From Escherichia phage BEK2: a DNA stretch of 46,880 bases. The notes under the pieces are model-generated. The model did no database searches, was not told the DNA's origin, and worked only from the letters and a program-made list of their open reading frames with translations. The DNA lies in the sequence record MN158206.1. One strand, given 5' to 3'. A program made the translations under genes and the position numbers. Shown here in pieces: positions 1 to 41,670 of this stretch (position 1 is its first letter; each line of letters starts with the position of its first letter).

Positions 1-507
1 ATGAGCAAAGCAGCATTAAAGATGGGCGAAGGAAATTTCAAGGCGCTCTACAACAAGAAGTATGGCGATATTGCTATGGTGGCAATCAACCGCAAGTACA
101 CGCCTGAGGAAGTTTTCGATTTTGCGGTGAGATACTTCTCTTGGGCTGAAAGTGAGGTAATCAAAGCTATTGAGACGGCGGCTTTCCATGGCGTGGTTAG
201 TGAAAGCCTTGTACACAAACCGCGAGTGTTTACATTAACCGGGCTGGCGCTCTTTATGGGTGTTAACATCAATAGATTCGCTCGATGGCGCACTGAGGCT
301 GGATACTCTGATGTGATGGAATTTATTGATAACGTAATCTACGAGCAGAAGTACCAGCTTGGAGTTGCGGGTATCATCAACTCTACCATCGTTGGTAAAG
401 AGCTTGGTATTGATAAACCGCAGGAGATTAAGATTAGCAACAACTCCACAGCTAATGACGTTGATAGTATGAAGGAAGCACTGGAGTCCGTGATTAGTAA
501 GCTATAG
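1..507 (+). CDS. terminase small subunit (putative)
   Basis: 168-aa ORF directly upstream of the HNH/terL pair. ATG at nt 1 is served, across the window junction, by AAGGAGG (46868-46874) and a TGgTATAAT promoter (46847-46855). Assignment by size and position only. Confidence 0.55.
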   Translation: MSKAALKMGEGNFKALYNKKYGDIAMVAINRKYTPEEVFDFAVRYFSWAESEVIKAIETAAFHGVVSESLVHKPRVFTLTGLALFMGVNINRFARWRTEAGYSDVMEFIDNVIYEQKYQLGVAGIINSTIVGKELGIDKPQEIKISNNSTANDVDSMKEALESVISKL

Positions 508-547
508 CACTTATTGTTAAAAGAAGAGGCCCAATCAATGAGATAAT
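504..547 (+). promoter_or_regulatory. box promoter cassette P0
   Basis: ATAGCACTTATTGTTAAA (504-521), 21-nt spacer, GATAAT (542-547). The terS stop TAG (505-507) lies inside the box. A GGCCCA/TGGGCC hairpin spans the spacer. Drives the HNH gene. Confidence 0.55.
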
Positions 548-575
548 GGGCCCAACAAACTAGCGAGGTGGCGAT

Positions 576-1088
576 ATGAATTGGCATGATTATTTTGAAT
601 ACAAAGATGGGAAGATTTACTGGAAAGATTACGATAGCGAGAGGCTTGGAAGGAGAAGGATACAGCGAAGATTCATAGGGAAAGAGGTTGGCGGCATTGA
701 TAAAAGCCTAGGGTATGTTAGGGTAAACATGCCTGGTAAAAAATATTGGGTTCATAGAATAATCTGGGAGATGCATAACGGAGTAATACCAGAAGGTATG
801 CAAATTGACCGTATAAATCATGTTAGAAATGTTAATAGGATAGAAAACCTTAGGTTAGTTACAATTCAGGAAAATAGAAAGAATCAGTCAATAAATTCGA
901 GGAATAAGACCGGGGTTACCGGAGTCTGCATAGTATCTAGGACTGGCAAATATGCAGCTCAAATAAAAAAGGATGGAGAGAATATTCACTTGGGATTCTT
1001 TGATAATATTCACGACGCGTCGATTGTCAGGGCGAGGGCTGAATTTATTCTTGGGTATCATAAAAACCACGGGAGGAAAGATGAGTGA
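576..1088 (+). CDS. HNH-family homing endonuclease with AP2-like DNA-binding domain (HNH core degenerate)
   Basis: VHRIIWEMHNG...IDRINHVRNVNRIENLRLVT fits the phage HNH_3 pattern, but the usual D-H is D-R. TGVTGV...GKYAAQI...HLGFFD is AP2-like. Inserted between terS and terL; its stop overlaps the terL start (ATGAGTGA). Confidence 0.8.
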   Translation: MNWHDYFEYKDGKIYWKDYDSERLGRRRIQRRFIGKEVGGIDKSLGYVRVNMPGKKYWVHRIIWEMHNGVIPEGMQIDRINHVRNVNRIENLRLVTIQENRKNQSINSRNKTGVTGVCIVSRTGKYAAQIKKDGENIHLGFFDNIHDASIVRARAEFILGYHKNHGRKDE

Positions 1089-2652
1089 TTTAATCGTATG
1101 GGATGAGCTGACATACGCAGAAAAGATGGCTATCAAGGCCATCTCTGAGCATAGTTTCGAGGGGTTCTTGCGGTGTTTCTTCCAGATAACTCAGGGCGAG
1201 AGATTCAAAATGAATTGGCATGCGAAGTACCTATGCCGTGTTATAGATGAGATTCTCGAGGGAAAGAGAAAGGATACCATCATAAACGTAGCTCCCGGAT
1301 CAGCCAAAACCGAACTTTTTAGCATTCACTTCCCTGTGTATAGCATGATTAAGATTAAGAAGGTCAGGAATCTTAGTTTGTCGTTCTCTGATTCATTGGT
1401 TAAGCGCAACTCCAAACGCGTCCGTGACCTTATTAAGTCAAAGGAATTTCAGGAGCTCTGGCCTTGCACCTTTGGAACGTGCAGGGATGACGAGATTCAG
1501 GTTCTGGATGAGAATGGCAAAGTTAGGTTTGAGTCTATATCCAAGGCGATGGCAGGACAGGTGACGGGAAGCAGGGGAGGCTACATGACTGACGATTATA
1601 GTGGTTGCATAATGCTTGATGACCCACTAAAGCCTGATGACGCGTTAAGTAATGTAAGAAGAGAGGCTGTCAACATGCTTCTCAAGAACACAATTCGTTC
1701 ACGTCGAGCTAGCTCAGTAAAGGGAAAGGAAACGCCAATACTTTCCGTGCAGCAAAGACTTCATGTTCTGGACACTAGCCACTTCATGGAGTCAGGGCAA
1801 ATGGGCATAAAGTTCGACGTAGTGAAAGTTCCAGCCATAGTCACAGAGGATTACGCCGACACGCTTCCTGATTGGATCAAGCAACAATTTATTGATGATG
1901 TTCTTTCATCACCATTTGTAGAGCGGGATGGGGTTAAGTATTACAGCTACTTTCCGGCAAAGGAGTCAATAGAAGACCTGATGGCCATGTGGGATGCTGA
2001 CCAGTACACGTTCCTTAGTCAGTATCAACAAGAACCAGTAGCACTTGGCGGCAATCTGATTAACGTGGATTGGTTCCAGCGCCTTAGCGATACATTCAGA
2101 CCTCCCGCTAAGTATGATTATCGATTCATCACATGCGATACTGCGATGACTACAAAGAGTTATAGTGACTTCTCTGTACTTCAGTTGTGGGGCTATAAGG
2201 ACGCCAAGATTTACCTGATAGACCAGCGCAGAGGTAAGTGGGAGGCGCCAGAGTTGGAAGCTGAACTGCTGGACTTCGAGAAGAAATCAAGGGCAACCAG
2301 TCAGGCAGATGGCATCCTCCGAAAGATTATCATCGAGAAGAAAGCCTCTGGTATCGGTCTTATTCAATCGGCAGGTAGAGTTATGCGAACACCGATAGAG
2401 CCATACGTGCCGGATAACGACAAGCTAACTAGGGTAATGAGCGCATTGCCACAGATTAAAGCTGGTAACGTAGTTCTTCCCGAGTCAGCGTCGTGGTTAA
2501 ACGGATTGCTTACTGAGGTTGCGGCTTTTACGGCAGATGATTCGCATAAGCACGATGACCAAATTGATACCATGACAATGGCAATCAACCTGGTTCTGAA
2601 CATTGCGGACGATCCTAAGGCGCGACTAATGCGCATAGCGGGAATTAAATAG
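1081..2652 (+). CDS. terL: terminase large subunit
   Basis: Walker A-like VAPGSAKT and Walker B-like CIMLDDPLKPDD. C-terminal acidic nuclease-type motifs (ITCDTAMT, HKHDDQIDT). GGGAGG SD before ATG 1081. The 973 start in the ORF track lies inside the HNH gene. Confidence 0.85.
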   Translation: MSDLIVWDELTYAEKMAIKAISEHSFEGFLRCFFQITQGERFKMNWHAKYLCRVIDEILEGKRKDTIINVAPGSAKTELFSIHFPVYSMIKIKKVRNLSLSFSDSLVKRNSKRVRDLIKSKEFQELWPCTFGTCRDDEIQVLDENGKVRFESISKAMAGQVTGSRGGYMTDDYSGCIMLDDPLKPDDALSNVRREAVNMLLKNTIRSRRASSVKGKETPILSVQQRLHVLDTSHFMESGQMGIKFDVVKVPAIVTEDYADTLPDWIKQQFIDDVLSSPFVERDGVKYYSYFPAKESIEDLMAMWDADQYTFLSQYQQEPVALGGNLINVDWFQRLSDTFRPPAKYDYRFITCDTAMTTKSYSDFSVLQLWGYKDAKIYLIDQRRGKWEAPELEAELLDFEKKSRATSQADGILRKIIIEKKASGIGLIQSAGRVMRTPIEPYVPDNDKLTRVMSALPQIKAGNVVLPESASWLNGLLTEVAAFTADDSHKHDDQIDTMTMAINLVLNIADDPKARLMRIAGIK

Positions 2653-2692
2653 CACGAATTGCTAAACATAAAAGCCAGGGATGGCTTATAGT
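2649..2692 (+). promoter_or_regulatory. box promoter cassette P1
   Basis: ATAGCACGAATTGCTAAA (2649-2666), 22-nt spacer containing an AGCCA/TGGCT hairpin, TATAGT (2687-2692). The terL stop TAG is inside the box. Confidence 0.65.
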
Positions 2693-2727
2693 TACTTCAC
2701 ACAAACGAGATGAGAGGAGATAAACAA

Positions 2728-3111
2728 ATGGGACGCACTTCAAAGGTTGTATATCTTGGAAGCAACACTGGAGAGTGTGGTGGTTTTACAGTAGGAAAGG
2801 AATATAAGGCTTACAATTATAATACTGAATATAATTACATTTCAACTTATGATGATAAAGGTAGCTATCGTCAAATCAAGAACGGAGCATTCCACCACTT
2901 CAAACTCCATGATGAGGATGACCATTTTGTAACTGAGACTGAGTGCGCAGTCATGCAGCCCAGCGAAGATAAAAAACCATCTCTAATATATTGCATAAAC
3001 GGTCATGAAGTTGACATGATTGAGTTTGAAAATGTGCGCCATAAGGTTCTAGAGCTTGATGCTTATGGCGTAAAATGCGACACAATCAAGTTCGAAGTAA
3101 AATTCGAGTAA
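2728..3111 (+). CDS. hypothetical protein (insulated cassette between terL and portal)
   Basis: 127 aa; GAGAGGAG SD before ATG 2728. Bounded by P1 and terminator 3133-3155. N-terminus carries the FTVGKEY...YDDKG small-domain signature seen in other cassette-first genes. Confidence 0.6.
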   Translation: MGRTSKVVYLGSNTGECGGFTVGKEYKAYNYNTEYNYISTYDDKGSYRQIKNGAFHHFKLHDEDDHFVTETECAVMQPSEDKKPSLIYCINGHEVDMIEFENVRHKVLELDAYGVKCDTIKFEVKFE

Positions 3112-10496: not shown

Positions 10497-10501
10497 ATTG
10501 C

Positions 10502-10545
10502 ATAGCACTTTTTGCTAAAGCACTTATCCAATCTTCCTGTATAGT
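10502..10545 (+). promoter_or_regulatory. box promoter cassette P2
   Basis: ATAGCACTTTTTGCTAAA (10502-10519), 22-nt spacer, TATAGT (10540-10545), then leader CATCGAAACGAAA (10551-10563). Confidence 0.65.
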
Positions 10546-10578
10546 TAACTCATCGAAACGAAATGAAGGAATTAAGAA

Positions 10579-14940: not shown

Positions 14941-15696
14941 ATGCTAAGTCCAAAGTTTGAGAATCAGTTGCAAAGCCTTTTCCCTGGCGAGATTGTGACA
15001 CTAATCCAGGTTGACGGAACCTCCTTCGGAAGTCTCGTTTACAACTTCCACAATGAGAACATTTCATACACGCCAGAAGAGATTATGATGGCTCAAATGA
15101 ATGGGGAGCCACTACCAGAGAAGACTATTACATTTCGCGGTGAAGAGTATGGTCCTAGACCTTTCGGTATCTCTGGCATCAATATGACTTCTGACGGCAA
15201 AGCCAACAAAGTAACGCTAACAGTATCAAACGTAGACCAGCGTATTAGCGCACTTATCCGTACTTACAATGGATTGGTTAAAGCTAAGGTTACTATCTGG
15301 ATTACTACGCGTGATAACATCAACGAAGACGGGAGCATCGCTGATGGGGACTATCGCAGATTCGTTTACTTCATTGAGCGACCAAAGCAGGTTGACTACA
15401 AAACCGCATCATTTGAGCTAAGTAGCCCAATGGATATGGATGGAATTTATATCCCAGCGAGACTTGTTCAGTCTGTTTGCTATTTCGCCTCTAGGGGTTG
15501 GTATCGTAGCGGTAATGGCTGCGCTTATGCTGGCAATAGATACTTCAACAAGGATGACGAGCCAGTGTCAGACCCATCATTAGACTTCTGTGCAGGAACT
15601 GTTAACAGTTGCAAACTTAGATTTGGTGAGAATAATCAGTTAGATTTCGGTGGTTGTGCTTCAGCAAGCCTTCAGGCTAAAGCCAACCAGAGTTAA
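14941..15696 (+). CDS. minor tail protein (lambda L-like)
   Basis: 251 aa. ATG 14941 with GGAG SD. C-terminal Cys cluster (CYFASRGWYRSGNGCAYAG...CAGTVNSC) as in L-type tail-tip proteins. Confidence 0.75.
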   Translation: MLSPKFENQLQSLFPGEIVTLIQVDGTSFGSLVYNFHNENISYTPEEIMMAQMNGEPLPEKTITFRGEEYGPRPFGISGINMTSDGKANKVTLTVSNVDQRISALIRTYNGLVKAKVTIWITTRDNINEDGSIADGDYRRFVYFIERPKQVDYKTASFELSSPMDMDGIYIPARLVQSVCYFASRGWYRSGNGCAYAGNRYFNKDDEPVSDPSLDFCAGTVNSCKLRFGENNQLDFGGCASASLQAKANQS

Positions 15697-15706
15697 GGAG
15701 AAATAA

Positions 15707-16465
15707 ATGTTAACACCAAAAGTTAAGCTGGAAATCTTCCAGCACGCAAAGGAAGTGTACCCGCAAGAATGTTGCGGGGTTGTTACCCAGAAGGGTAGGG
15801 CACAGAAATACCACAGAATCAAGAACGCCAGCAAAGACCCCGAAAATGAGTTTGTGCTTGATTCAAATGAGTATTCTGATATCGCATTTGGCTTAGCTGA
15901 TAATGAGTCAATTGTTTACATAGTTCACTCACACACGGGAGATGGTGCGACAACAAGACCTAGCCCGGCTGACATTTGTAGCTGCAATGAATGCGAGATT
16001 CCTTATGTTATCGTCAGCATTCCGGAGGGAGATATGCGCATCCTTGATCCATCAGCTATGCCACTGATTGGTCGCCCGTGGGGTTTGGGTAGCTTTGACT
16101 GCTGGGAGCTGGTGATGGCATTCCACAAGAAATACGGCGTAAAACTGAATGACTACCGCGTTAATTACCCGTGGTGGGAGAAACGGTACAATGAAAATAT
16201 CTATGAAGACAACTGGATTAAGGAAGGATTTGAACTGGTAAAAACTTCAGATATTCCGATTGGCTCAATGATTATGATGCAGGTGCAAAGTGAGGTGGCA
16301 AACCACGCTGGAATCTACATTGGCAACAACAGATTCATTCATCACCTTTATGGTAAAATGAGTTCAGTTGATATCTACTCCGATTACTGGCGAGAGCGCA
16401 CTGTGCGAATCGTTCGCCATAAGGATTTACCAGAGGATGTAATTTATGACCCAGAAACTGATTGA
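15707..16465 (+). CDS. tail tip assembly protein (lambda K-like; JAB/MPN + NlpC/P60)
   Basis: JAMM-type HSHTGDGATTRPSPAD motif, then an NlpC/P60-like FDCWELV...NHAGIYIG...IHH. AAGGAG SD. Confidence 0.8.
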   Translation: MLTPKVKLEIFQHAKEVYPQECCGVVTQKGRAQKYHRIKNASKDPENEFVLDSNEYSDIAFGLADNESIVYIVHSHTGDGATTRPSPADICSCNECEIPYVIVSIPEGDMRILDPSAMPLIGRPWGLGSFDCWELVMAFHKKYGVKLNDYRVNYPWWEKRYNENIYEDNWIKEGFELVKTSDIPIGSMIMMQVQSEVANHAGIYIGNNRFIHHLYGKMSSVDIYSDYWRERTVRIVRHKDLPEDVIYDPETD

Positions 16466-21714: not shown

Positions 21715-21758
21715 ATAGTATCGCATCCTTGCGATCAGTGTTTAGCAATTAGTGCTAT
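21715..21758 (-). promoter_or_regulatory. box promoter cassette P3
   Basis: Minus strand: ATAGCACTAATTGCTAAA (21758-21741), 22-nt spacer, TACTAT (21720-21715), leader CCATCGAAACGAAA. The box encodes the last five residues (NSTNC) and the stop of the methyltransferase. Confidence 0.65.
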
Positions 21759-22431
21759 TCGCCAAAAATACAGCTCTTGCAAATCCACGAGGTGTAAGAC
21801 TGCGAATTACCTTTGTTTTCTTGCTCTTCCCGCCTAGCTTCTTGTGCTGGTCTGAGTATCCATCATTAACGTCAACTGGTGAGGCTTGAGGCCATTTAAA
21901 CCCATTGCCAGACCAAATGCACGTCTTCTTAGGATATGCGTCTCTTGGCTTTATTAGGTCGCTAAAAAACGGGTGTAAATCATCTTCCGGCAAATAGCCT
22001 CCGTATTCGTAAGGGTGAAACGTGTTATCAGGTTTACTCCAGAGCGATGACAGCACGCTGACTGGGTTCTCAATCATGTATGGAACTCCGTATTTTTCAG
22101 CCAGTTTAAAAGCAACCTTGCAAGTCTCTGCCGCCTCAATTTGGAAGTTTTGGTTGGCTAGGCGCTTACGCTCAAAGTGTGCTGCCCCGCTCACGGCTAA
22201 ATCCGTACAGGGCGGGAATGCCATGATAAAATCAGGCTTCACATCAAAATCAAAACTGGAATCTATCCAGGCATTAACGTATGTAATGTTCTCATGCTCA
22301 ACCTTTGCATTTAAGTCACTGTAGCTCCCGTGGTCGGAATCATCAAAGTTGAAGCAGCAGCATGTGTGGCCAGCTTCAGCCCAATCATTTACAGCCAAAC
22401 CAGAACCATCAAATAAAGACCAGATAACCAT
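21742..22431 (-). CDS. DNA (cytosine-5) methyltransferase, compact form
   Basis: Motif I SLFDGSG, motif [13 protein letters not shown], motif VI MIENPV, C-terminal [11 protein letters not shown]. Only 229 aa. Confidence 0.75.
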
Positions 22432-22460: not shown

Positions 22461-22504
22461 ATTATACTGCACAAAATTTATTGTTCTTTAGCAATTCGTG
22501 CTAT
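22461..22504 (-). promoter_or_regulatory. box promoter cassette P4
   Basis: Minus strand: ATAGCACGAATTGCTAAA (22504-22487), 22-nt spacer, TATAAT (22466-22461). The Rha stop TAG is inside the box. Confidence 0.65.
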
Positions 22505-23172
22505 TTCTTTTCCAGCAGCAGCTTGATGTCAATGCCGAGATTATTCTCAATCAATCCGGTCAGCGCATCATTCTTTTCTTTAAGAGCGAAGCATTGCGCT
22601 TCATACTTAAATCTTTCCTCCATCTCATTCGAGCGACTAGCCCAACACTGGCGAGCCTCACAAGCCAGCATATCGAGTTTTTCATCGGTATTCTTATCCA
22701 TGAGTAAGATCTCATTTATTCTTTGCTCTGCAACAATGCGCTGGCTCAGGTGTGCATTTTGCGCATTAGCCACACCAAGCATCATTCGAGCCTCTTTTAG
22801 CTCATCAATGCTTACCATCCGGCTGATTACTTCTGCTTGTTTTTTAACTAACGCCTCGAGCTCATGAAGTCGACGGATAACTCTGCGACGAAGAACTACG
22901 CTGTAGCCAGTGATTAGCGTTTCGGTGAGTTCCTTGTTGAGTAAAATCTCAGATGTATAGCCTCGATTATCCGTAAGTACTTGATAATCATCATGACCCA
23001 AATCTGGGGCATCGTTATAATGTAACAATTCATTGATCATTTCCTTTGTGTCGCGAACGACGTGATCATGACGCTTACCTGTCAATTCAGCAATTTCCTT
23101 CGTGCTCATCATGGTTTTTGGCTGTTCTTTGTACGCTTCAATTTTCATTTTAGTCTCTCTTATGCTTTTCAT
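22501..23172 (-). CDS. Rha-family phage regulatory protein
   Basis: STKEIAELTGKRHDHVVRDTKEM is the Rha-domain signature; coiled C-terminal half. ATG 23172 sits in the 3' arm of an 8-bp hairpin (ATGGCTCA/TGAGCCAT), so ATG 23148 or 23112 may be the real start. Confidence 0.7.
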   Translation of the reverse strand: MKSIRETKMKIEAYKEQPKTMMSTKEIAELTGKRHDHVVRDTKEMINELLHYNDAPDLGHDDYQVLTDNRGYTSEILLNKELTETLITGYSVVLRRRVIRRLHELEALVKKQAEVISRMVSIDELKEARMMLGVANAQNAHLSQRIVAEQRINEILLMDKNTDEKLDMLACEARQCWASRSNEMEERFKYEAQCFALKEKNDALTGLIENNLGIDIKLLLEKK

Positions 23173-23252
23173 GGCTCAGATTTGAGCCATCGCTTGGTTT
23201 TGCTCTACCGATTTTCGGTAGACCAAGCAGCACCATTGCCACCATGCGACTA

Positions 23253-23296
23253 AATATACCTAAAGATAGTCAGTTGTCTTTAGCAATTAGTGCTAT
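23253..23296 (-). promoter_or_regulatory. box promoter cassette P5
   Basis: Minus strand: ATAGCACTAATTGCTAAA (23296-23279), 22-nt spacer, TATATT (23258-23253). Confidence 0.6.
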
Positions 23297-23320
23297 TTAT
23301 CGCCAATTTCACCACAAATC

Positions 23321-23645
23321 ACAGTTACACGTAACCGATGTAACTCGATGTATACAATCTCATTCGCGGAAAATGATATACGCGCCGTTACGCAAATTTA
23401 CGCAATAGTTACATTAAAATATCTATATATATCAACCTTTTACTATTATTATTATTATATATATTACTGTGTATATCATGTAACTACTGTTCTGGAGTGT
23501 TCCGGTTATAATTTTAATATCATGTGGATTTATACAGTATTGTGTGGCAGCCATACCAATGCACCCCCCGCAAGAAACGGTATACACGATATACACGATG
23601 GTTACATTGAGCTATATCTGGGCTGAGATGCCATTTTACGTAACA
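23321..23645. repeat. non-coding iteron/AT-rich region A (homolog of 41906-42231)
   Basis: More than 8 copies of GTAAC/GTTAC (often CGTAAC). (TA)n and (TAT)n runs (23443-23466). TATACACGA x2 (23581-23598). A 42-nt block (23603-23644) is 36/42 identical to 42189-42230. Only junk ORFs (poly-Tyr). Confidence 0.8.
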
Positions 23646-23699
23646 AGTTGCAATGCCTACACGGAATTACAAGTATTCACGCGTAAGTTTAAATCAACG

Positions 23700-23743
23700 A
23701 TTGGCAAAACCAATTGGACTGGCTACGGTACCGAATATATAGT
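23700..23743 (+). promoter_or_regulatory. degenerate box promoter cassette P6
   Basis: ATTGGCAAAACCAAT inverted repeat (23700-23714) at the box position, TATAGT (23738-23743), leader CATCGAAAGCAAGC (23749-23762). Confidence 0.45.
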
Positions 23744-23780
23744 TACCTCATCGAAAGCAAGCAACCAGAGAGATACAGAA

Positions 23781-23975
23781 ATGACCTACTACATTATCAA
23801 AGAGAAAAACAACGCACTGTTCGGCGATTGCTACTTTGGAGGCGAGGCCGGTTACACCACCGATAAGAATGAGGCAGACCGATTCGATACCAAAGAAGAA
23901 GCCAGGGATGTGCTGACTGGTTACTTCACTGAAGAAGATTTGAAGTCTGTTAAAGTAGTTAAGGTCAAGGGGTGA
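23781..23975 (+). CDS. hypothetical protein
   Basis: 64 aa from ATG 23781. The upstream part of track ORF 23544-23975 is non-coding region A plus the promoter. Confidence 0.55.
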   Translation: MTYYIIKEKNNALFGDCYFGGEAGYTTDKNEADRFDTKEEARDVLTGYFTEEDLKSVKVVKVKG

Positions 23976-23978
23976 GTT

Positions 23979-24944
23979 ATGAGCTTTAAGGTTTTTACAA
24001 GGGAGGAACTATCAAACTCGGAGTACCACGCTGAAACTGAACACATCTCAGGTTCCTCACTTGTCGAGATTATTCAGGGTTCACCAGCCAAGTGGAGGTT
24101 TAAGCAACGCAATAGCGATAGCAAGGCTCTTAAGTTTGGAACGCTGAGTCACACGTATATCCTAGAGGGTGACATGTTTGATAAAGAATACCTTCGAGCT
24201 ACAGACCTTGATGCGATTGATGGATTAATTACAAGCCAAGCAGGATTATCAGCAGCACTTAAAAAAGTTGGTGTAGCTGGCACGTCCGGGAAGGGGTATA
24301 GCGAGCTCGTAGAAATGATGTATCGTTCTGGTGAGGATTGGCCTGTTAAATGGTTAATTGAGCAGCAGGAGGGCGCGCAGGCGCTCGTGGAGGGTAAGGA
24401 GTTGGTTAGCGCCGCAGACTATGACAAAGTGATAGCTATGCGTGAGGTTCTTTGCAACATTCCGGAATATGATGCAATTGTGAACAGCGAGACGGCGCAG
24501 AAAGAGTTATCAATATTCGGTGAGATTCTAGGTGTTGGAGTTAAGATTCGAATCGACCACGTAGATGTTATTGATGGTGTGGTTCGGATCACAGATTATA
24601 AAACGACAGCGGACGCAAGCCCAGAAGGATTTGGTAAATCAGCATTCAATCACGGATACCTTGCAAAAATGGCATTACAGCGTGATCTATTTGTTAAGGC
24701 ATTCAACGAGAAGCGCAAGGTTGTTGTAGGATTGCTGGCACAGGAGAAGGTGGAGCCATACTTACCAATGCTGTACACCTTAACTGACGAACAGCTTCGA
24801 ATCGGTAGGTTGCAGTATCTTGAGGCGCTGGCTACTTACAAGAAGTGTAAGGAGCTAGATAGCTGGCCAGGGTACTCTAATGGCATTACAGAGCAAGAGC
24901 TATTAGTTCCTGAGTGGGCATTAAAACAATATAAAGAAATCTAA
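23979..24944 (+). CDS. PD-(D/E)XK recombination exonuclease (RecE/YqaJ-like)
   Basis: IRIDHVDV...VRITDYKT has the D...(D/E)xK arrangement. Sits immediately upstream of ERF and SSB. AAGGGGTGA SD. Confidence 0.7.
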   Translation: MSFKVFTREELSNSEYHAETEHISGSSLVEIIQGSPAKWRFKQRNSDSKALKFGTLSHTYILEGDMFDKEYLRATDLDAIDGLITSQAGLSAALKKVGVAGTSGKGYSELVEMMYRSGEDWPVKWLIEQQEGAQALVEGKELVSAADYDKVIAMREVLCNIPEYDAIVNSETAQKELSIFGEILGVGVKIRIDHVDVIDGVVRITDYKTTADASPEGFGKSAFNHGYLAKMALQRDLFVKAFNEKRKVVVGLLAQEKVEPYLPMLYTLTDEQLRIGRLQYLEALATYKKCKELDSWPGYSNGITEQELLVPEWALKQYKEI

Positions 24945-24988
24945 ATAGCACGAATTGCTAAAACAAGGTGGGATAGCTGAGGTATAGT
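24945..24988 (+). promoter_or_regulatory. box promoter cassette P7
   Basis: ATAGCACGAATTGCTAAA (24945-24962) directly after the stop TAA, 22-nt spacer, TATAGT (24983-24988). Confidence 0.65.
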
Positions 24989-25020
24989 TATACCATCAAC
25001 AACGGACGAGGTTAAAGAAA

Positions 25021-27598: not shown

Positions 27599-29116
27599 TT
27601 AAATTGTGAGGTCTACGTATAGTGGTTTGTGGTCACCTATAGCGAGAGGTGTATCTACAGAGCCATATTCACCTTGTTCTGAAAAACCTTTGTGGAATAT
27701 GCGATCAAGATACCATGTACCGCCGTTATTGCTGGTATTAATCTCCCCATTCCGGTTAACCATTGTGAAACCTGCGTCTATGAATGGTTGAAAATCAGAA
27801 TCGTTGTTGGTGTTCCAGTCACCCATCAATACGACATGGCTGTGTGTTTCTGCTGCAGCCATGCTTGCTAACTCGGTTATCATGGCACTAATGCGTTCCT
27901 GTGATAGCGCTAGATGAGTATTATAAACTACAACCGTTGTGCCGTTAACTTTCATCTCAGCTCTTACATAACTCCTGTATTCTGTGTCGCCTACTGTTGG
28001 TTGAGATAAGAAACGGGATCCGGTGACATTGGTTAGCGGTCGAGTTGAAGCTACCATGTTCCCGTAGTTTCTACCGAAGCTGAACCACTCTGAAGTTGAC
28101 TGGAAACCCGATCCGTAAGGGTAAAGCGCTAATTCGGATGCTCGCAAGTTGGGTACAGTATAGCTTTCCTGGCCGCCAACAAAATCCGCACCTATCCGTA
28201 GCCACCAAGTATTAATGTCAACGATTCGCTGCCTGTTAGCGTAGTCACCACCGAAATATCCACTTATACTGCCGGCTCCCCAGTTGTTCCAAGTGACGAA
28301 ACGAACCTTGTTAGAAGTAATTGCGTCTTCGCGCTCTCGAATCATCTGGCGTACGTTATCAGTTGAAGTTGCGACGATCTGTTCCCTAAGGGTAGCATCT
28401 GTTAGGCCAATCCATGCTGTCGGGCCTATTCCGCCAGTCGAATCCACGGTTGAGTTTGCTGGAACAACCTTAGGAAGTTCACCTCCCCACACGTAAGATG
28501 CTGCATTGCCATCTTTAATATCTATTATTTGCTGTGTTTTTGATTCAATTGTAACGCCATCCTGAAAGCTACCAATTAAGGCACCAGAAACAGAAGCGGC
28601 ACTTGCTGCGGCCTGTTGCGCAGATGTGGAAGCTGATGATGCGCTCAATTCGGATGATTGCTTATCCTGTGATACCTGATAAGCATCACTTGATACTTGA
28701 GCGCCAATGGTGACAATTTCTCCATATTGTGTGTTAATTTGGTTAACATCATTTGAAAATTTATCCTGATCAAAATCCTTAAAAACATCAACAGCTGTTG
28801 CAACTTCCGTTTCACGTGACTGGTAGTAACGAAGAGTTTCTGCAACATCCTGAGCCAAACCTTGAACGGTAATCCCATCGTGCGCAAGGATTGCGTAACC
28901 AGTTCCAGCAGGAACGGTTTCAGAGTTGGGGTTGTAAACATTAATCTGCGTATCGCTGATAATTTCTGAGATGGTGTAAATCTGTACCGGCTCTGTTTTA
29001 AATACAATGGTTGCACCAACTCTGATCAGTGTAAGTGGTGCCTTCCATGTTGTACCTACGCCAATAACCTCGCCATTTGCGGCCAGCGAAGCTGTTCCTA
29101 AGTCATAAATTGCCAT
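27599..29116 (-). CDS. tail fibre-like protein with C-terminal endonuclease/exonuclease/phosphatase (EEP) domain
   Basis: 505 aa from ATG 29116 (AAGGAG SD). Fibre-like N-terminus and a Ser/Ala-rich linker (SSELSASSASTSAQQAAASAASVS). EEP motifs: VTWNNWG, GGQE, VYNTHL, GDWN, LDRIF, GDHKP. Confidence 0.7.
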   Translation of the reverse strand: MAIYDLGTASLAANGEVIGVGTTWKAPLTLIRVGATIVFKTEPVQIYTISEIISDTQINVYNPNSETVPAGTGYAILAHDGITVQGLAQDVAETLRYYQSRETEVATAVDVFKDFDQDKFSNDVNQINTQYGEIVTIGAQVSSDAYQVSQDKQSSELSASSASTSAQQAAASAASVSGALIGSFQDGVTIESKTQQIIDIKDGNAASYVWGGELPKVVPANSTVDSTGGIGPTAWIGLTDATLREQIVATSTDNVRQMIREREDAITSNKVRFVTWNNWGAGSISGYFGGDYANRQRIVDINTWWLRIGADFVGGQESYTVPNLRASELALYPYGSGFQSTSEWFSFGRNYGNMVASTRPLTNVTGSRFLSQPTVGDTEYRSYVRAEMKVNGTTVVVYNTHLALSQERISAMITELASMAAAETHSHVVLMGDWNTNNDSDFQPFIDAGFTMVNRNGEINTSNNGGTWYLDRIFHKGFSEQGEYGSVDTPLAIGDHKPLYVDLTI

Positions 29117-29139
29117 CGTGTAAAGTCTCCTTTTGTAAA

Positions 29140-29157
29140 ATAGCACGAATTGCTAAG
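29140..29157 (+). promoter_or_regulatory. orphan box copy, antisense to the local operon
   Basis: ATAGCACGAATTGCTAAG on the + strand between two minus-strand genes. Nearest -10-like hexamer is TATAAA (29180-29185) at 24 nt, and it runs straight into the terminator hairpin. Confidence 0.5.
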
Positions 29158-29182
29158 TTGGATTGTAGCATCTTTCGGGTAT

Positions 29183-29204
29183 AAAAAACCTCCCGAAGGA
29201 GGTT
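29183..29204 (-). terminator. rho-independent terminator (UUCG loop on minus strand)
   Basis: Minus strand: AACCTCC-TTCG-GGAGGTT followed by T6. Overlaps the primase stop codon. Confidence 0.8.
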
Positions 29205-30126
29205 AGCTATTCAATAAGTCACTTGCCTTATATATCTTCTTCCTGATGCCGCTCTTGAATGAGTATTCATCATTTGGTATTACCACGTCAATACACCTGT
29301 CATCCGCAACGCAAAGCAACTCTCTGTCAAGTTTGCACGCCACTCTCAGCTTTTGGTTTCTAAGCGCGTAAGCAACCATTTCCATGTTGTAACTGGAGTA
29401 GCAAACAAGCACACAGCGGTTGCCAGTAGCAATGTGAACACGATAGCCGTCAATGAGATTATCGACCAGATAAGCGAACTCACCATCCTTAAGGGAACCA
29501 ATAACAGCCACAGACTGGCGAGTGTAATCTTTTGCGGCATAACTAACATCTCCTTCTTCATTGATAAACATTACATTGCACATTTCTTCTGATATACCAT
29601 CACCATAAGCCATGAAGCAAGGTATTGCATGGATTAATTCACCTGATTTTGCTCTACCAACATCAAAGCCAAACTCGCTATAGATTCCCTCGTATATACT
29701 GAGTGGGGTTGATTCTACTCTTTCCGTCCTTCCCATTATCTCTAAGCATCTTTCGTGGTCAATTTGAGCGCCCATTTTGTAGAGCTGGGTTCTTGATGCT
29801 TGCTTGTTTGCCTTGTTGACAACCTCAACCGGGATAAGGTTTAGCCACTCACCGAGAACGTCGATACACTCACTGAATGACTCGCCTCGCAGCTTCTGGA
29901 CCCAGAGAATTCCATCCCCTGAGCCGCACTGGTTGCAGATAATGCCACCATCACCATCTTCGCTAACCTTGTTTGTCCATCTCGCGCGATCGTTTCCACC
30001 GCAATAGATGCATGGCTTGTGCTTCTTGGTCTGGAAAAACTTAGGATCTGCGCCGCAGATGTTTATAAGCGCCTTATCCCACAGTCCGCGCATTCTTGGT
30101 AGAACCTCTTTCTTATCGTAGTGCAT
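29203..30126 (-). CDS. DNA primase (zinc-ribbon type)
   Basis: N-terminal CIYCGG...CNQCGSGDG zinc-binding pattern as in P4-alpha/T1-type primases. Lies in the replication gene neighbourhood. Confidence 0.6.
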   Translation of the reverse strand: MHYDKKEVLPRMRGLWDKALINICGADPKFFQTKKHKPCIYCGGNDRARWTNKVSEDGDGGIICNQCGSGDGILWVQKLRGESFSECIDVLGEWLNLIPVEVVNKANKQASRTQLYKMGAQIDHERCLEIMGRTERVESTPLSIYEGIYSEFGFDVGRAKSGELIHAIPCFMAYGDGISEEMCNVMFINEEGDVSYAAKDYTRQSVAVIGSLKDGEFAYLVDNLIDGYRVHIATGNRCVLVCYSSYNMEMVAYALRNQKLRVACKLDRELLCVADDRCIDVVIPNDEYSFKSGIRKKIYKASDLLNS

Positions 30127-30438: not shown

Positions 30439-30482
30439 ACCATACCTCATCCATGAGAAATGTCTTTAGCTTTTCGTGCTGC
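30439..30482 (-). promoter_or_regulatory. box promoter cassette P10 (inside coding sequence)
   Basis: Minus strand: GCAGCACGAAAAGCTAAA (30482-30465), 22-nt spacer, TATGGT (30444-30439), leader ACATCGAAAGCCGA. The box is translated as AARKAK near the C-terminus of the HTH protein. Confidence 0.5.
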
Positions 30483-30932
30483 CTCGTTAGCGGCCTTAAT
30501 CTTGCGCCATGAGCGACACTCTGGCTTGGTGGCTAATTCTGCATCAGTGACCACGCGCAGCATGTGACGTTTTTTGCAGCGCAGGGTTAGAGGCTTGCCA
30601 TTGCCGTCGAATTGCAGATCTGGTCGGCAGAATGTGGCTCTAAAACCTTCCCCGGTTCGTTTGTAGTAGTTGTGCGATAACTGAGCACCACGTGCGGAAA
30701 TCATGCCGCGCTTAAACCATTCTTCTACAGCCTGTGGTGTTACCTTTAGCTGCTTTGCGATATTCGCTTTTGTGCCGAAGAAATCAAGAACTATATCTAG
30801 TCGCGCGCGTAGTCCGGCTCTTACTTCATCTTTTAAAACGTAGTAGCCTGAAGGTCGTTTGCGTTGTTTTTTGTCTTCAGTGCGGATAGTTCCGTTGTTC
30901 CCGTTGATTGTTCGCTTGTCGACTGTATTCAT
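30447..30932 (-). CDS. HTH DNA-binding protein (Cro/YdaS-like), candidate transcription regulator
   Basis: GTKANIAKQLKVTPQAVEEWFKRG is a helix-turn-helix segment. Basic N- and C-termini. GAGGT SD. Confidence 0.6.
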   Translation of the reverse strand: MNTVDKRTINGNNGTIRTEDKKQRKRPSGYYVLKDEVRAGLRARLDIVLDFFGTKANIAKQLKVTPQAVEEWFKRGMISARGAQLSHNYYKRTGEGFRATFCRPDLQFDGNGKPLTLRCKKRHMLRVVTDAELATKPECRSWRKIKAANEAARKAKDISHG

Positions 30933-30944
30933 TTCATTACCTCA

Positions 30945-30987
30945 GTAGCATTTTTTGTTAAAAGTCATTCTGATTTGATGGTAGTAT
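30945..30987 (+). promoter_or_regulatory. box promoter cassette P11 (variant box) for the helicase operon
   Basis: GTAGCATTTTTTGTTAAA (30945-30962), 21-nt spacer, TAGTAT (30982-30987) with TG two nt upstream. Confidence 0.5.
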
Positions 30988-31014
30988 TGTACTCAATTAA
31001 ACGCTACAAGACAA
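30986..31014 (-). promoter_or_regulatory. sigma70-type promoter for the HTH gene
   Basis: Minus strand: TTGTCT (31014-31009), 17-nt spacer, TACAAT (30991-30986). Its -10 overlaps the -10 of P11 by 2 bp. Confidence 0.5.
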
Positions 31015-31033
31015 TTTTTATAGGAATTTAGAT

Positions 31034-33028: not shown

Positions 33029-33444
33029 AAATTACAGACAAAGTTGACTACATTGAGTTTTACCATGGCCCGGTTAAGTCTTGCCCGAAAGAGGATGACG
33101 AGCAAATCTTTTGCTCTGATTGGGTTAAGTATAACTATCCAGAGATGGTATTTTTCCACTGCGTGAATGAGGGTAAGAAAACCATTGGTCAGGCAAGAAA
33201 AGACCAGGCCAAGGGGCTTCTCAAAGGCGTATCAGACTGTATGTTTCTTATTCCCGAATCTATCCGAGGAAAGTACCCTTTCGGAGCCATAGAGCTAAAG
33301 AGGGCTGGGAAGACGCAGGCTAGTCCGGTCAGCGACGAGCAGAAGTCATTCCTTAAAAGCGTAAGAGAATCAGGAGGTTTTGCCGGGGTAGCCTACGGTC
33401 GCGAGGGTTTTCTAGCGGCGTTTAAAGAAATGATTTCAAAATAG
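33025..33444 (+). CDS. VRR-NUC domain nuclease
   Basis: GVSDCMF...GAIELKRAG has the D...ExK arrangement. ATGA overlap with the helicase gene. Confidence 0.7.
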   Translation: MKITDKVDYIEFYHGPVKSCPKEDDEQIFCSDWVKYNYPEMVFFHCVNEGKKTIGQARKDQAKGLLKGVSDCMFLIPESIRGKYPFGAIELKRAGKTQASPVSDEQKSFLKSVRESGGFAGVAYGREGFLAAFKEMISK

Positions 33445-33484
33445 CACGAATTGCTAAAGACGTTTCGTTGAGTTGGTGTATTAT
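33441..33484 (+). promoter_or_regulatory. box promoter cassette P12
   Basis: ATAGCACGAATTGCTAAA (33441-33458; stop TAG inside), 22-nt spacer, TGtATTAT/TATTAT (33479-33484), leader CATCGAAACGAAACG (33490-33504). Confidence 0.7.
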
Positions 33485-33522
33485 CTATTCATCGAAACGA
33501 AACGCACAAAGAGAGAAAGAAA

Positions 33523-34650: not shown

Positions 34651-35781
34651 ATGGCAACTGCAAAGATTAGCAACGAACAACTACGCGAAGAACTGGCAAG
34701 TGGCATGACCAACAAGGCAATCGCAGAGAAGTACGGAATGAACATTCGCAATGTTGAATTGCGTCGTAGTAAATTGGCTAAGAGCGGGGAATTGCACGGG
34801 AACCCAGGCATCAAGAAACTAGTTCCTGACGGTTATATGGTTAAAGGCACATCAACAATGATTGACGCGGAAGGTAACGAGAAGATCAGATGGGTTAAAA
34901 CTTCAATAGATAATGAGCGACTTGAGGTTTTAATGGAGCAAGCGCGTGAGGCTTTTTGCTCTGATTTGCCAAAGGCAGATTCGGTCACCCACTCAGGTAA
35001 TGAGGTAAATTCTGAATTAATGACTCTTTACCCGATTTTTGATATCCATATCGGCATGATGGCTCATCGACATGAGTCTGGTGAAAATTATGACACCAAT
35101 ACCGCAGAGAAATTAATGGAATCATATTTCGATCATGCAATTTCTGTATCACCATCATCAGAGAAGGCTGTGATTTTGGTTGGCGGTGATTTCCTTCACT
35201 CTGACGGACTGGAGGCTGTAACTCCAGCAAGTGGGCACTGCCTTGATCAAGATAGTCGATATGCCAAGTTAGTTTATGTGGCAATTCGCTCAATTCGCGG
35301 TGCGGTAGAGAAGATGCTTAAGAAACACAAGGAAGTCGAGATTCAAATCATAGAGGGAAATCATGACCAAAGTGGTATGATTTGGCTTCGTGCGGCAATG
35401 GCTGCATTTTATGAAAGCGAGAGTCGCGTGTTTGTTGATACCAGCCCGGCAATCATGCACAAAACACGATTTGGCTCAACACTACTTGGTTACACGCACG
35501 GTCACACGATGAAGAAAGCAGAAGGCAGGCTTGCAGCTATGGCAACTGATTACAGGAAAGATTTTGGTGAGTGTGAATTTGTTTATTGCCACTCCGGGCA
35601 TTTTCACCACGCAACTGTTACAGAGTGCACTCTTGGGATTGATGAGGTTCACCCAGCTCTGGCTAGCAAGGATGCATATGCCGCTCGAGGAGGGTGGCGA
35701 TCATATCGCCAAGCGGCTGCAATTGTTTACCACAAGAATTTTGGCGAGGTTGGTAGACACATTTATCGCCCAGGTATGTAA
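34651..35781 (+). CDS. HTH-domain / calcineurin-like metallophosphoesterase fusion protein
   Basis: N-terminal GMTNKAIAEKYGMNIRNVELRRSKL (HTH). Phosphoesterase motifs DIHIG, GGDFLH, GNHD, THGH, GHFHH. Confidence 0.7.
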   Translation: MATAKISNEQLREELASGMTNKAIAEKYGMNIRNVELRRSKLAKSGELHGNPGIKKLVPDGYMVKGTSTMIDAEGNEKIRWVKTSIDNERLEVLMEQAREAFCSDLPKADSVTHSGNEVNSELMTLYPIFDIHIGMMAHRHESGENYDTNTAEKLMESYFDHAISVSPSSEKAVILVGGDFLHSDGLEAVTPASGHCLDQDSRYAKLVYVAIRSIRGAVEKMLKKHKEVEIQIIEGNHDQSGMIWLRAAMAAFYESESRVFVDTSPAIMHKTRFGSTLLGYTHGHTMKKAEGRLAAMATDYRKDFGECEFVYCHSGHFHHATVTECTLGIDEVHPALASKDAYAARGGWRSYRQAAAIVYHKNFGEVGRHIYRPGM

Positions 35782-35825
35782 ATAGCACTTTTTGCCTAAA
35801 GCATGCCGTAGAAATGCGGCATAAT
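35782..35825 (+). promoter_or_regulatory. box promoter cassette P13 (1-nt insertion variant)
   Basis: ATAGCACTTTTTGCCTAAA (35782-35800) directly after the stop TAA, an ATGCCG/CGGCAT hairpin in the spacer, CATAAT (35820-35825). Confidence 0.5.
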
Positions 35826-35866
35826 TACCACATCTAAACGAGATGAACTAAACGAGGAAACACAAA

Positions 35867-37882: not shown

Positions 37883-39466
37883 TCACCCCAGCAGTCGCGG
37901 ATTAATGTAAACCTTATCACCAATCAGGCACGTGTAGTTTTTCTCGTCAAGCATTGGCAGTAGGTGATCTTTAATCTTCGTCATTACCCCAGCCTGAGCC
38001 TCGAACGGCTTAACCTTTCGAGCAGCTTCATATAATGAGCGAATACCAACTACACCCTTGCCGTTCTTTCCTTGCTTGATCAGGATATCAATCAGCTTAT
38101 TCATCTCGGCATTATCGCCAGCGTGACCAGCGGCGTTAGCAGATGAAAGATAAGTCTTGCTAAGTTCATTGAACATAATTACAGCTTCTTGCATGGTATC
38201 AAGCTCAATCTCTCTTGACTTCTGTGGACTCCCGCCATTTGGGTTAAACCAGTTACGCACAGTGTGAAGAACCGCCGCAATCCTGATGGCCTGCTTATCG
38301 AACTTACCCAGGGCGCCGCGCAACATTGTGTGGGAATACTTCCCGCCGTCCGCAAGGTGAGGCTCCATCTCCTGACGTGCGCGGTTAAGATACTTCATTG
38401 CTGAGTTGCTCACTGTCAACTTAACATCTTGCTCATTCATTATTTCATGAACTAATCGGAAATAGTCGGCCTTGAGTCCACCATCAATTGGCTCATATGT
38501 TGAATCTCCATTCTCATCAACAAACACACGCTCGCCCAAAAATGACTTTTCACGCACAAGCAGAAATCGCTCCGACACACCGATACCACGTGCGCCAGCG
38601 TTCATGATTGCATTGATTGTTTCGTCTTGCGCAATTACTGAGATGCAACCCATAGCAACGAAGCTCATGTTGTTCTCTGCGTTCGCACGCGCAATGGACA
38701 CGTTACCAGCATCCCATGCCTTCAGTACAAGTTCGCTGTTCGTCTTCTTGGATCCGTCACCGTACGTCATACCTAGCAGTGAGTTGACGCTCGTCGCCTC
38801 ATCAGAGATAACCGCGAAGTTACCTTGTCGGTTGTTTATTCGTGCCAGACCTTCCGGCGTGGTGTCGGATACAGGGAAAACGATATCACAAAGTTTCTCG
38901 AGCTTTTCCTCAAGCTCCTCCTTCTCCTCAAAAAGAGAAGCCATCTCTGAAGGAGATTTCTCCTGCTTCATCTCTTTGGATAATGCAGATAGTTTGGCCA
39001 TGATCTTCTTGCGCTCACGCTTGCGAACTTCATTAAGACGCTCAGTCTCAGCAATCATTGGAGCAATCGATAGCGAGTTAATTGCTGATTTACCAGTTGA
39101 TGGCGGCTGGCTTGTCACGACGTAGAGCGCAGTTGGTTGTTGGGTTCCATGATACTCAACTGTAAATCGGCCCAGCATCGCAGCGGAAATACACCCCAGG
39201 AAGTGCATGTATGCGGACGACTCAGGAAACTGAACCGAACGAGCTATGTTAGATGACAGTTTGCCAACAACATCAATATCATTACCTAGTGAGATTACGG
39301 GATACTTGTCATTAGCTGCATCAATCTCGACCGGAGCCTTCCAAAATGATTGAGAATGACGATAGCCATTGGCATTGATAGCGACGCGCAGGGGTGGGAG
39401 GTTGTCCGCAGCAGCAATTGCCATAACCTGTTCAACAGACAGTTTATCTTCGTTGAAATCAAACAT
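37883..39466 (-). CDS. P-loop NTPase, DUF3987/YfjI-like (candidate replication initiator/helicase-type protein)
   Basis: 527 aa. Walker A SQPPSTGKSA, Walker B NFAVISDEAT. N-terminal 42 aa and C-terminal ~70 aa are paralogous to ORF 42798-43322. Family name is from recollection and needs an HMM search. Confidence 0.6.
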   Translation of the reverse strand: MFDFNEDKLSVEQVMAIAAADNLPPLRVAINANGYRHSQSFWKAPVEIDAANDKYPVISLGNDIDVVGKLSSNIARSVQFPESSAYMHFLGCISAAMLGRFTVEYHGTQQPTALYVVTSQPPSTGKSAINSLSIAPMIAETERLNEVRKRERKKIMAKLSALSKEMKQEKSPSEMASLFEEKEELEEKLEKLCDIVFPVSDTTPEGLARINNRQGNFAVISDEATSVNSLLGMTYGDGSKKTNSELVLKAWDAGNVSIARANAENNMSFVAMGCISVIAQDETINAIMNAGARGIGVSERFLLVREKSFLGERVFVDENGDSTYEPIDGGLKADYFRLVHEIMNEQDVKLTVSNSAMKYLNRARQEMEPHLADGGKYSHTMLRGALGKFDKQAIRIAAVLHTVRNWFNPNGGSPQKSREIELDTMQEAVIMFNELSKTYLSSANAAGHAGDNAEMNKLIDILIKQGKNGKGVVGIRSLYEAARKVKPFEAQAGVMTKIKDHLLPMLDEKNYTCLIGDKVYINPRLLG

Positions 39467-39929: not shown

Positions 39930-39973
39930 AATATACAGGAAAAGCCCCGAAGGGCTTTAGCAATTAGTGCTAT
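39930..39973 (-). promoter_or_regulatory. box promoter cassette P16 with nested terminator
   Basis: Minus strand: ATAGCACTAATTGCTAAA (39973-39956), a 22-nt spacer containing AGCCC-TTCG-GGGCT, TATATT (39935-39930), leader CATCGAAACGAAAC. The box encodes NSTNC plus the stop of the upstream gene. Confidence 0.65.
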
Positions 39974-40208
39974 TTATTTCCTTGAGTCCAAGTGGCGTTA
40001 TCACTACCTTATACCAAGTTCCAATCTCTGGCTTATTTACATTATATGCCAGCTCTACATAACCTAGCCGAAATAGTTTTGGTATACCTCTGGATGACTT
40101 GCCACAATCACGAATCCTGCCGCGATTAAGGTCATAGCTTATTTGATGAATCTCTCCATTATGAATACAGTGGAGGGTTTTTATTGCGGATTCAGAAATT
40201 TTAATCAC
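39957..40208 (-). CDS. hypothetical protein
   Basis: 83 aa. GTG start in a GTGA overlap with the upstream micro-ORF. C-terminus NSTNC is encoded by the box. Confidence 0.5.
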   Translation of the reverse strand: MIKISESAIKTLHCIHNGEIHQISYDLNRGRIRDCGKSSRGIPKLFRLGYVELAYNVNKPEIGTWYKVVITPLGLKEINSTNC

Positions 40209-41633: not shown

Positions 41634-41670
41634 TTTTGTGTCTCCGTGAGTTCTTCGTTTCGATGGAGTA

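Follow-up and report, generated by a model that had tools for sequence, protein, structure and literature searches.

Paired modules of short repeats and an AT-rich tract, with the architecture of a replication origin, in Escherichia phage BEK2 and its Drexlerviridae relatives

Genome setting of the two regions

The 46,880-nucleotide DNA of Escherichia phage BEK2 (record MN158206.1; its full length is called the window here) contains two similar non-coding regions, A and B, each built around short repeats and an AT-rich tract, which we discuss as candidate replication origins. The window is a near-complete genome and is 99.9% identical to the record of Escherichia phage BEK3 (MN158207.1, 46,884 bp), a T1/Rtp-like member of the Braunvirinae within the Drexlerviridae. 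In the comparisons below, the label BEK3 stands for the window sequence or this 99.9%-identical record. The genes are arranged in the following arms:

~42.3 kb via the record end to 20.5 kb, rightward: small early genes, terminase and virion genes
23.2-20.5 kb, leftward
23.8-26.3 kb, rightward: exonuclease VIII, Erf and SSB
30.9-26.4 kb, leftward: primase and fibres
31.0-37.2 kb, rightward
41.6-37.3 kb, leftward: small genes and the DUF3987 helicase

An earlier inspection of the letters alone (the sequence-only reading) had placed A and B at the two transcription-divergence points of the genome. There are three such points, with A and B at two of them; the third (30933-31033) is short, featureless and without the module described below. 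That A and B are non-coding was correct, but the gaps, approximately 23173-23780 for A and 41634-42318 for B, are larger than had been given. To the right of the modules lie early operons, exonuclease VIII-Erf-SSB in the case of A, and a DUF7174 gene followed by small genes in the case of B.

The two regions had been proposed to be homologous and co-oriented, and pairwise alignment bears this out, with 62% identity over approximately 380 columns. The alignment scores 91-97 bits, compared to a mean of 21 (standard deviation 5, maximum 40) for 200 block shuffles that keep local composition. In addition, a repeat search independently recovered the two best A/B blocks, as families D11 (69 nt, 72%) and D15 (58 nt, 79%). 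The AT runs reported for both regions are present, and the 42-nt block on their right side is indeed identical at 36 of 42 positions (23603-23644 versus 42189-42230). Smaller details fared less evenly: all 8 GTAAC/GTTAC positions listed for A are exact, but 4 of the 7 listed for B are off by 1 nt. Likewise, the ACACGA repeats of A (TATACACGA twice, 23581-23598) are exactly where they had been placed, with GTTACACGCACGACACGA at 42168-42185 as their counterpart in B. A further pair of elements, ATGTGGATTTA in A and ATGTGGGATTTA in B, had been put forward as a weak DnaA-box match; it is not kept in other B copies and is due to chance.

Within the two gaps together, GTAAC/GTTAC occurs 15 times versus 1.8 times expected, an 8-fold enrichment (P ~1e-9). 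TTACRY describes the repeat motif better, with 21 copies in the 773 nt of A and B together versus 1.9 expected (P ~2e-15). For either motif, A and B are the top two windows of the genome, and 11 of the 31 genome copies of TACRCG fall within the same 773 nt.

Anatomy of the shared module

To the window we compared 11 relatives: Rtp, CEB_EC3a, T1, 2004V, T145P1, A110b, TH27, Rogue1, TR2, TLS and the Klebsiella Webervirus cp39. Multiple alignment, first of 8 A and 4 B copies and, in a second round, of T1 together with 18 copies from 9 phages, resolves a common module of approximately 165 nt. From left to right, it consists of a TACRCGTAAC left arm, four direct TACGC-type repeats, an AT centre and an inverted repeat copy. 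In the window, the two modules and the sequences to their right are laid out as follows (strand given where one applies):

Module A
23323-23355: left arm AGTTACACGTAACCGATGTAACTCGATGTATAC, with three TTACRY copies (23325 on the plus strand, 23329 and 23338 on the minus strand)
23379-23414, plus strand: four direct repeats, TACGC at 23379, 23389 and 23399, and TACAT at 23410
23415-23470: AT-rich centre, candidate DNA-unwinding element (DUE)
23478-23486: inverted repeat copy ATGTAACTA, reverse complement of TAGTTACAT (23406-23414)
23487-23700, plus strand: right half of region A, with TATACACGA twice at 23581-23598 and the 42-nt block TACATTGAGCTATATCTGGGCTGAGATGCCATTTTACGTAAC at 23603-23644; family D11

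Module B
41907-41937: left arm CTACACGTAACGCCAGTAGCGCGATGTAAGC
41951-41986, plus strand: four direct repeats, TACGT at 41951, TACGC at 41960 and 41970, and TACAC at 41982
41996-42055: AT-rich centre, candidate DUE, with (TA)6 at 42000-42011 and (TAT)4 at 42021-42032; family D15
42060-42065: inverted repeat copy GTGTAA, reverse complement of TTACAC (41981-41986), the pair bracketing the AT centre
42066-42258, plus strand: right half of region B, with GTTACACGCACGACACGA at 42168-42185 and the 42-nt block at 42189-42230, which contains the palindrome AGCTATAGCT; family D11

The direct repeats of module A are spaced by 10, 10 and 11 bp and directly abut the AT centre, and those of module B are spaced by 9, 10 and 12 bp and end 9 nt to the left of it. 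With a spacing of about 10 bp in both modules, the repeats share approximately the same helical face. Within the AT centre of A are (TA)4 at 23424-23431, (TAT)4(TA)4 at 23444-23463 and, at 23430-23442, a perfect match to the IHF core (TATCAACCTTTTA). Since TAGTTACAT and ATGTAACTA are reverse complements of each other on either side, they bracket the AT centre of A in the same manner as the shorter pair does in B.

Across the aligned copies, the order of the elements and much of their sequence are maintained. The left-arm pattern TACrCGTAAC..GT..TGT is kept in the 18 copies from 9 phages, and the repeat pattern TACG..TTACGC..TTACGC..TTACA in both the A and B copies of the 9 phages. The AT centre reads AATATCTATATATATCAACCTTTTAC followed by (TTA)3-6(TA)n, and the inverted copy conforms to TGTATATC.TGTAAC. 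To the right of the module, approximately 200 nt more, including the 42-nt block, are common to BEK3, CEB_EC3a, TR2 and Rtp; the B copies of 2004V and Rogue1 have no similarity to this right half or its block. A scan of IMG/VR with the 42-nt block returned only 3 loci.

Duplex stability of the AT centres

We next calculated nearest-neighbour duplex energies for 60-bp windows across each genome. The AT centre of B contains the least stable 60-nt window of the BEK3 genome (-53.9 kcal/mol), followed by window 23406-23465 of A (-55.9 kcal/mol). The genome mean is -81.1 kcal/mol (standard deviation 4.7), and the next-lowest window after the A and B centres has an energy of -63.4 kcal/mol. The same pattern of two outliers, at the same two positions in the gene order, is found in 12 of 12 Drexlerviridae genomes, i.e., the window and all of its 11 relatives.

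The sequence behind this low stability is of a particular kind. Runs of at least 3 TTA units are present at both loci in 9 of 9 genomes other than T1, and 7 of these 9 have no further such run; BEK3 and 2004V have one extra run each. The length of the (TTA)n tract varies by whole units between close relatives, which indicates a slippage-prone length polymorphism. The window itself has one TAT/TTA unit fewer than the BEK3 record, 4 (23444-23455) versus 5 (MN158207.1, 23444-23458). Apart from the number of TTA units and one base preceding them, the AT centre of module A is invariant in 8 A orthologs. A variable unit number is better tolerated by an unwinding element than by a promoter spacer.

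Conservation across Drexlerviridae

The sequence-only reading had asked whether the likeness of A and B persists at the same loci in related phages. It does: all 12 genomes carry exactly this pair of modules, and TTACRY peaks at the A locus in 10 of 10 genomes scanned. From one lineage to another the flanking repeats change, yet they are common to both loci within a genome. BEK3, Rogue1 and TH27 have TTACGC/ATACGC, the BEK3 type being TTACGC/TACRCG. T1 has TGTAAC(A), with 7 and 2 copies at the two loci (P ~9e-11), TLS has GAACA/GTTCAC (6 and 7 copies), and cp39 has GTAAGAT, for which 13 of the 16 genome copies are located in the two gaps. Such matching of lineage-specific repeats at both loci is what would arise if the sites co-evolved with a single binder encoded by the phage.

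Module A of TLS is located between two co-directional genes, showing that a divergent promoter pair is not required for the module. In cp39, the helicase arm (3570-5129) and the exonuclease operon (15422-16435) are on the same strand, unlike in BEK3, pointing to one arm being inverted with respect to the Braunvirinae layout. As a separate observation, the module repeats of TLS (GTTCAC/GTGAACA/GGAACA; TLS 28759-29006 and 143-433) resemble the type-I iteron of satellite phage P4, TGTTCACC, which may be coincidence; the repeats of the BEK3 type do not resemble this iteron.

Candidate DNA-binding proteins

Helicase and primase are both supplied by the phage itself. Two of its proteins, both of them only candidate trans factors for the modules, share a winged helix:

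37883-39466, minus strand: DUF3987 MCM-like helicase, 527 aa, with a C-terminal winged helix (approximately aa 448-527)
42798-43322, plus strand: 174-aa helicase paralog, encoded by the second gene to the right of module B

The helicase matches Pfam DUF3987 (E = 5.7e-41). In a Foldseek search with its AlphaFold2 (AF2) model (pLDDT 89.5), the top matches are all MCM2-7 subunits. Sequence searches of the helicase and its paralog against the PDB gave no match. The DUF3987 family has been assigned to helicase superfamily 6 (SF6), with a winged helix-turn-helix (HTH) at the C-terminus, and its members are predicted to be replicative helicases (Kazlauskas et al. 2016, PMC4889955); one member of the family has been shown to be a 5'-3' helicase (PMC11724360).

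The 174-aa protein had been taken for a short paralog of a P-loop protein. It is not itself a P-loop protein; it joins the N-terminal tip (aa 1-45) and the winged helix (aa 448-526) of the helicase and lacks the ATPase core. It forms a conserved family of its own (PHROG 7327) with more than 300 homologs, and is present at the same position in CEB_EC3a, 2004V, TH27 and TR2, with a remnant in Rtp. Its absence from some relatives makes it an accessory component. The primase (29203-30126), which has a P4-alpha-type zinc ribbon, is a protein separate from the helicase. Further DNA binders, both universal, are the small terminase and a Cro-like HTH regulator (30447-30932). A Rha-family gene (22501-23172 in the window) adjoins A in BEK3 and Rogue1. 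This gene is present in only some of the genomes, and Rogue1 has it on the opposite side of the module.

Promoters, repeats and the pac region around the modules

Several features border the modules on either side:

23279-23298, minus strand: leftward copy of a family-wide 21-nt repeat (ATAGCACnnnTTGCTAAA), upstream of the promoter of the Rha-like gene and forming the left bound of module A; families D4 and D7
23715-23789, plus strand: rightward promoter-like TGGACT-17-TATAGT (23715-23743), leader TATAGTTACCTCATCGAAAG and the probable true start ATG 23781
41721-41816: array of AGATTTAT and TTGCA/TGCAA repeats, in the B gap only, outside the shared module and to the left of it
42259-42327, plus strand: rightward promoter-like TTGACT-17-TATGAT (42259-42287) and the start of the DUF7174 gene, ATG 42319

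The good promoters are thus located outside the module core, and promoter-like matches inside the AT centre are weak only (9 of 12) and at chance level. The gene starting at ATG 23781 precedes the exonuclease VIII-Erf-SSB operon, and its 64-aa product spans the whole of a 67-aa PHROG family. GenBank has a coding sequence (CDS) over the right half of A (window 23544-23975; record 23562-23978) for a 138-aa "hypothetical protein". This CDS is probably over-extended upstream into region A and the true product is probably the 64-aa form, since the conserved promoter, leader and ribosome-binding site point to ATG 23781. In 3 of 8 relatives, in-frame stops are present 30-36 nt upstream of this ATG, and the annotation of Rogue1 is the short form.

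The array at 41721-41816, approximately 100-200 bp from module B, is a probable pac or small-terminase recognition region. It is kept widely in Drexlerviridae, and position 1 of the T1 record (annotated repeat_region 1..2800) falls in the equivalent array. In TLS, pac was mapped by restriction analysis to the gap equivalent to B and assigned to AGATTT. The shared module itself was considered as the pac site and rejected: it occurs twice, and the pac-type array is separate from it and present only to the left of B. A terminal duplication in the 2004V record was likewise not accepted as a sign of a physical end: the two ends of the record overlap by 127 nt, probably through an assembly artefact.

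The 21-nt repeat (aaATAGCACnnnTTGCTAAA) has approximately 17 copies in the genome and contains the inverted repeat TAGCA-N5-TGCTA. Such a dyad-symmetric site would suit a protein that binds as a dimer at the -35 position. Downstream of most copies, approximately 20 nt away, come TATAGTTAnCnCATCGAAA(cgaa) and a gene start, and the orientation always agrees with that of transcription. In TLS, for which the same repeat has been reported, its function was left as an open question (PMC11447400). Its copies in the window are:

Plus strand: 504-529, 2647-2674, 10501-10558, 24943-25001, 29138-29165, 33439-33497, 35781-35838, 43317-43344, 44149-44206, 44319-44338 and 44850-44908
Minus strand: 21741-21764, 22487-22510, 23279-23302, 39956-39979, 41327-41350 and 41699-41716

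Elsewhere in the genome, a tRNA-Arg(TCT) (46493-46569) is located among the small early genes upstream of the terminase and is the sole match of Rfam (gathering thresholds) and ARAGORN. An HNH homing endonuclease gene (576-1088) is inserted between the small and large terminase genes, and its open reading frame (ORF) runs into the upstream end of the longest large-terminase ORF (973-2652). In relatives, HNH genes are found at other places, e.g., inside the primase arm of CEB_EC3a and TR2.

Interpretation

The architecture of the modules is origin-like because phased short repeats and an inverted copy bracket the most meltable tract of the genome, in an arrangement that is duplicated, family-wide and equipped with lineage-specific repeats. 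Two features looked for in an origin are present: at least three phased direct repeats (four of the TACGC type in A as well as in B) and an adjacent AT segment of exceptionally low stability (in BEK3 and 11 of 11 relatives). The proposal of the sequence-only reading, that iterons and an AT-rich unwinding-type segment constitute an ori-like pair, is strengthened with regard to this architecture; the accompanying DnaA-box match did not hold up, nor did the parallel to ori/crr of P4 as a homology. As the best reading, with a probability of roughly 0.5, we take both modules to be replication origins, or one to be an origin and the other an auxiliary cis element.

On this reading, a phage-specific DNA-binding protein would occupy the four phased direct repeats, the inverted copy and the outlying copies. 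Its occupancy would load, or stabilise, the melting of the intervening (TA)n/(TTA)n tract, the DNA of the genome that is by far the easiest to open, and negative supercoiling from the flanking divergent early promoters could aid this melting. The MCM-like DUF3987 helicase and the P4-alpha-like primase would then be recruited, with synthesis carried out by host Pol III. As a candidate repeat binder, the C-terminal winged helix of the helicase itself requires the fewest assumptions, and the ATPase-less paralog encoded beside B might compete for, or pre-occupy, the same repeat sites. The two modules could be independent origins or an origin and an auxiliary cis element, and both copies may be needed. 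A more elaborate version, which we regard as rather unlikely, is that this T1-family dual origin would be read directly by the MCM-like (SF6) helicase via its C-terminal winged helix. The repeats bracketing the unwinding tract would let two rings load head to head, and the ATPase-less paralog would be a competitor or licensing factor for origin occupancy.

A number of observations weigh against an origin function, or against the proposed binder. There are no DnaA boxes in A or B at up to 1 mismatch, and GC skew across the genome tracks transcription direction and gene orientation only, giving no independent origin signal. Perfect IHF cores number 3 in the genome versus 3.2 expected by chance, with one of them in A. 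The module was sought in plasmids and E. coli genomes, as a replicon or satellite context, and no match was found; there is therefore no natural "replicon test". With regard to the binder, the winged-helix fold is generic; the Cro-like HTH regulator is a candidate of equally universal occurrence, and the 174-aa paralog is absent from T1, TLS, Rogue1, T145P1 and A110b. The AT centre of A is near-invariant in 8 phages whose flanks differ by 8-17%; for simple meltability, less constraint would do, and a promoter or a site for a specific protein is suggested. Finally, both modules are 100-350 nt upstream of a rightward early operon in every genome examined, a constant placement that fits a regulatory role equally well.

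The last two points also favour the main alternative, which we consider less probable than an origin function: the modules could be regulatory or architectural hubs for early transcription. A regulator (the Cro-like HTH protein or, where present, a Rha-like protein) would bind the repeats, and the AT tract, perhaps bent by IHF, would serve, in the manner of an UP element or a looping site, to set how active the neighbouring early operons are or when they are transcribed. Besides being always upstream of such an operon, the modules are between divergent promoters in most genomes, and the homology of B extends into the -35 element of the good promoter TTGACT-17-TATGAT. The near-invariant AT centre of A, with its perfect IHF core TATCAACCTTTTA, and the Rha-family gene next to A in BEK3 and Rogue1 would also fit, and the annotators of CEB_EC3a predicted divergent promoters within the AT centre. 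However, the module core is 225-250 nt away from the rightward -35 element in A and 185 nt in B, with promoter matches inside it at chance level only, and the TTA unit count is not constant. Only some genomes have Rha, which changes sides in Rogue1, and the third divergent region, around the Cro-like regulator's own gene, has no repeats. Moreover, being the lowest-stability extreme in 12 of 12 genomes is no known requirement of an operator. The origin and regulatory readings are in any case compatible rather than exclusive, and there are well-known examples (lambda, oriC) of origins that transcription alongside them activates.

It is considerably less probable that the modules are cis sites for packaging or recombination, i.e., accessory terminase-binding sites such as those of P1 pac and lambda cosB, or entry sites for RecE/Erf. 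The layout of P1 pac is that of hexamer repeats flanking an IHF site, in BEK3, T1 and TLS only 100-200 bp separate module B and the pac region, and module A is directly upstream of the exonuclease VIII-Erf-SSB genes. Against this, the pac-specific AGATTTAT/TTGCA array is absent from A, the module repeats are unlike those of the pac array, and T1 and TLS each have only one known packaging start. That A and B are genes for a structured non-coding RNA or a small protein, with the DNA repeats being incidental, is very improbable in spite of the ORFs of 92, 143 and 102 aa that cross them and the GenBank CDS over the right half of A: structured RNA was rejected on the Rfam result (no match in A or B at E <= 1, the sole match being ES003, E = 0.065, in the pac-like array left of B) and on folding z-scores of +0.07 to +0.9, RNA and DNA folding no better than shuffles, and coding on the 1-4 nt frame-breaking indels among relatives and in-frame stops in 3 of 8.

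According to papers from 2020 and 2024 on T1-like phages, the family had no identified replication origin, and the 2024 paper on TLS reported no iteron-like repeats anywhere in that genome. Our literature search found no transcriptome or origin-mapping study of a T1-like phage; the 2004 T1 and 2006 Rtp genome papers were outside this search and may mention the regions. T1 is one of Delbrück's original T phages, and its Drexlerviridae relatives are ubiquitous laboratory and fermentation contaminants as well as therapy candidates. The paired modules provide two precise loci of approximately 165 bp, present family-wide and with named candidate binders, making the origin question directly testable; a comparative prediction of the binder model is that the repeat type should track the binder. 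If the modules do have origin function, they would reveal the way in which a bacterial virus directs an MCM-like helicase to DNA, and provide handles to engineer or block the replication of T1-like phages. Should the dual origin be read directly by the helicase, it would represent a bacterial-virus counterpart of origin recognition by ORC/MCM, collapsed into one protein and a truncated regulator.

Comparison with known systems

Of the packaging sites, P1 pac and lambda cosB are like the modules in that short repeats flank a central segment containing an IHF-like site, and module B is located beside pac. Unlike these sites, module A is 18.6 kb away from pac and has no pac-specific array, and the extreme AT tract has no equivalent in them.

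The sequence-only reading had drawn a parallel to the ori/crr pair of satellite phage P4. The likeness consists of two distant cis regions with the same short repeats, and P4-like features are present in the phage, namely the P4-alpha-type zinc ribbon of the primase and the C-terminal winged helix of the helicase. As homology, the parallel fails: type-I iterons (TGTTCACC) are absent from A and B at up to 1 mismatch, and the helicase is MCM-like (SF6) and not of superfamily 3 (SF3) like that of P4 alpha. P4 alpha combines primase, SF3 helicase and origin-binding domain in one protein, whereas helicase and primase are separate here. The spacing of the cis regions is 18.6 kb compared to approximately 4.5 kb in P4, and, unlike in P4, both copies hold an AT centre.

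Archaeal origins, with origin recognition boxes (ORB/mini-ORB) and Orc1/Cdc6 plus MCM, resemble the modules in that inverted short elements bracket an AT-rich DUE. Here, the helicase is MCM-like and has an ORC/Cdc6-like winged helix. However, no Orc1/Cdc6 homolog is evident in the phage and there is no sequence similarity to ORB, so that the likeness is one of architecture and fold only.

The iteron theta origins (lambda ori; pSC101, R6K and RK2) share with the modules the phased direct repeats that abut an AT-rich, easily melted segment, the IHF-like site in the AT region, and a location near replication genes. The repeats of the modules are 5-7 bp compared to 17-22 bp in these origins, and there is no sequence similarity to any plasmid. 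In contrast to iteron theta origins, the phage has neither an O or Rep-type initiator gene nor DnaA boxes, and the module occurs twice per genome. By architecture, the module is an iteron-plus-DUE, origin-like element.

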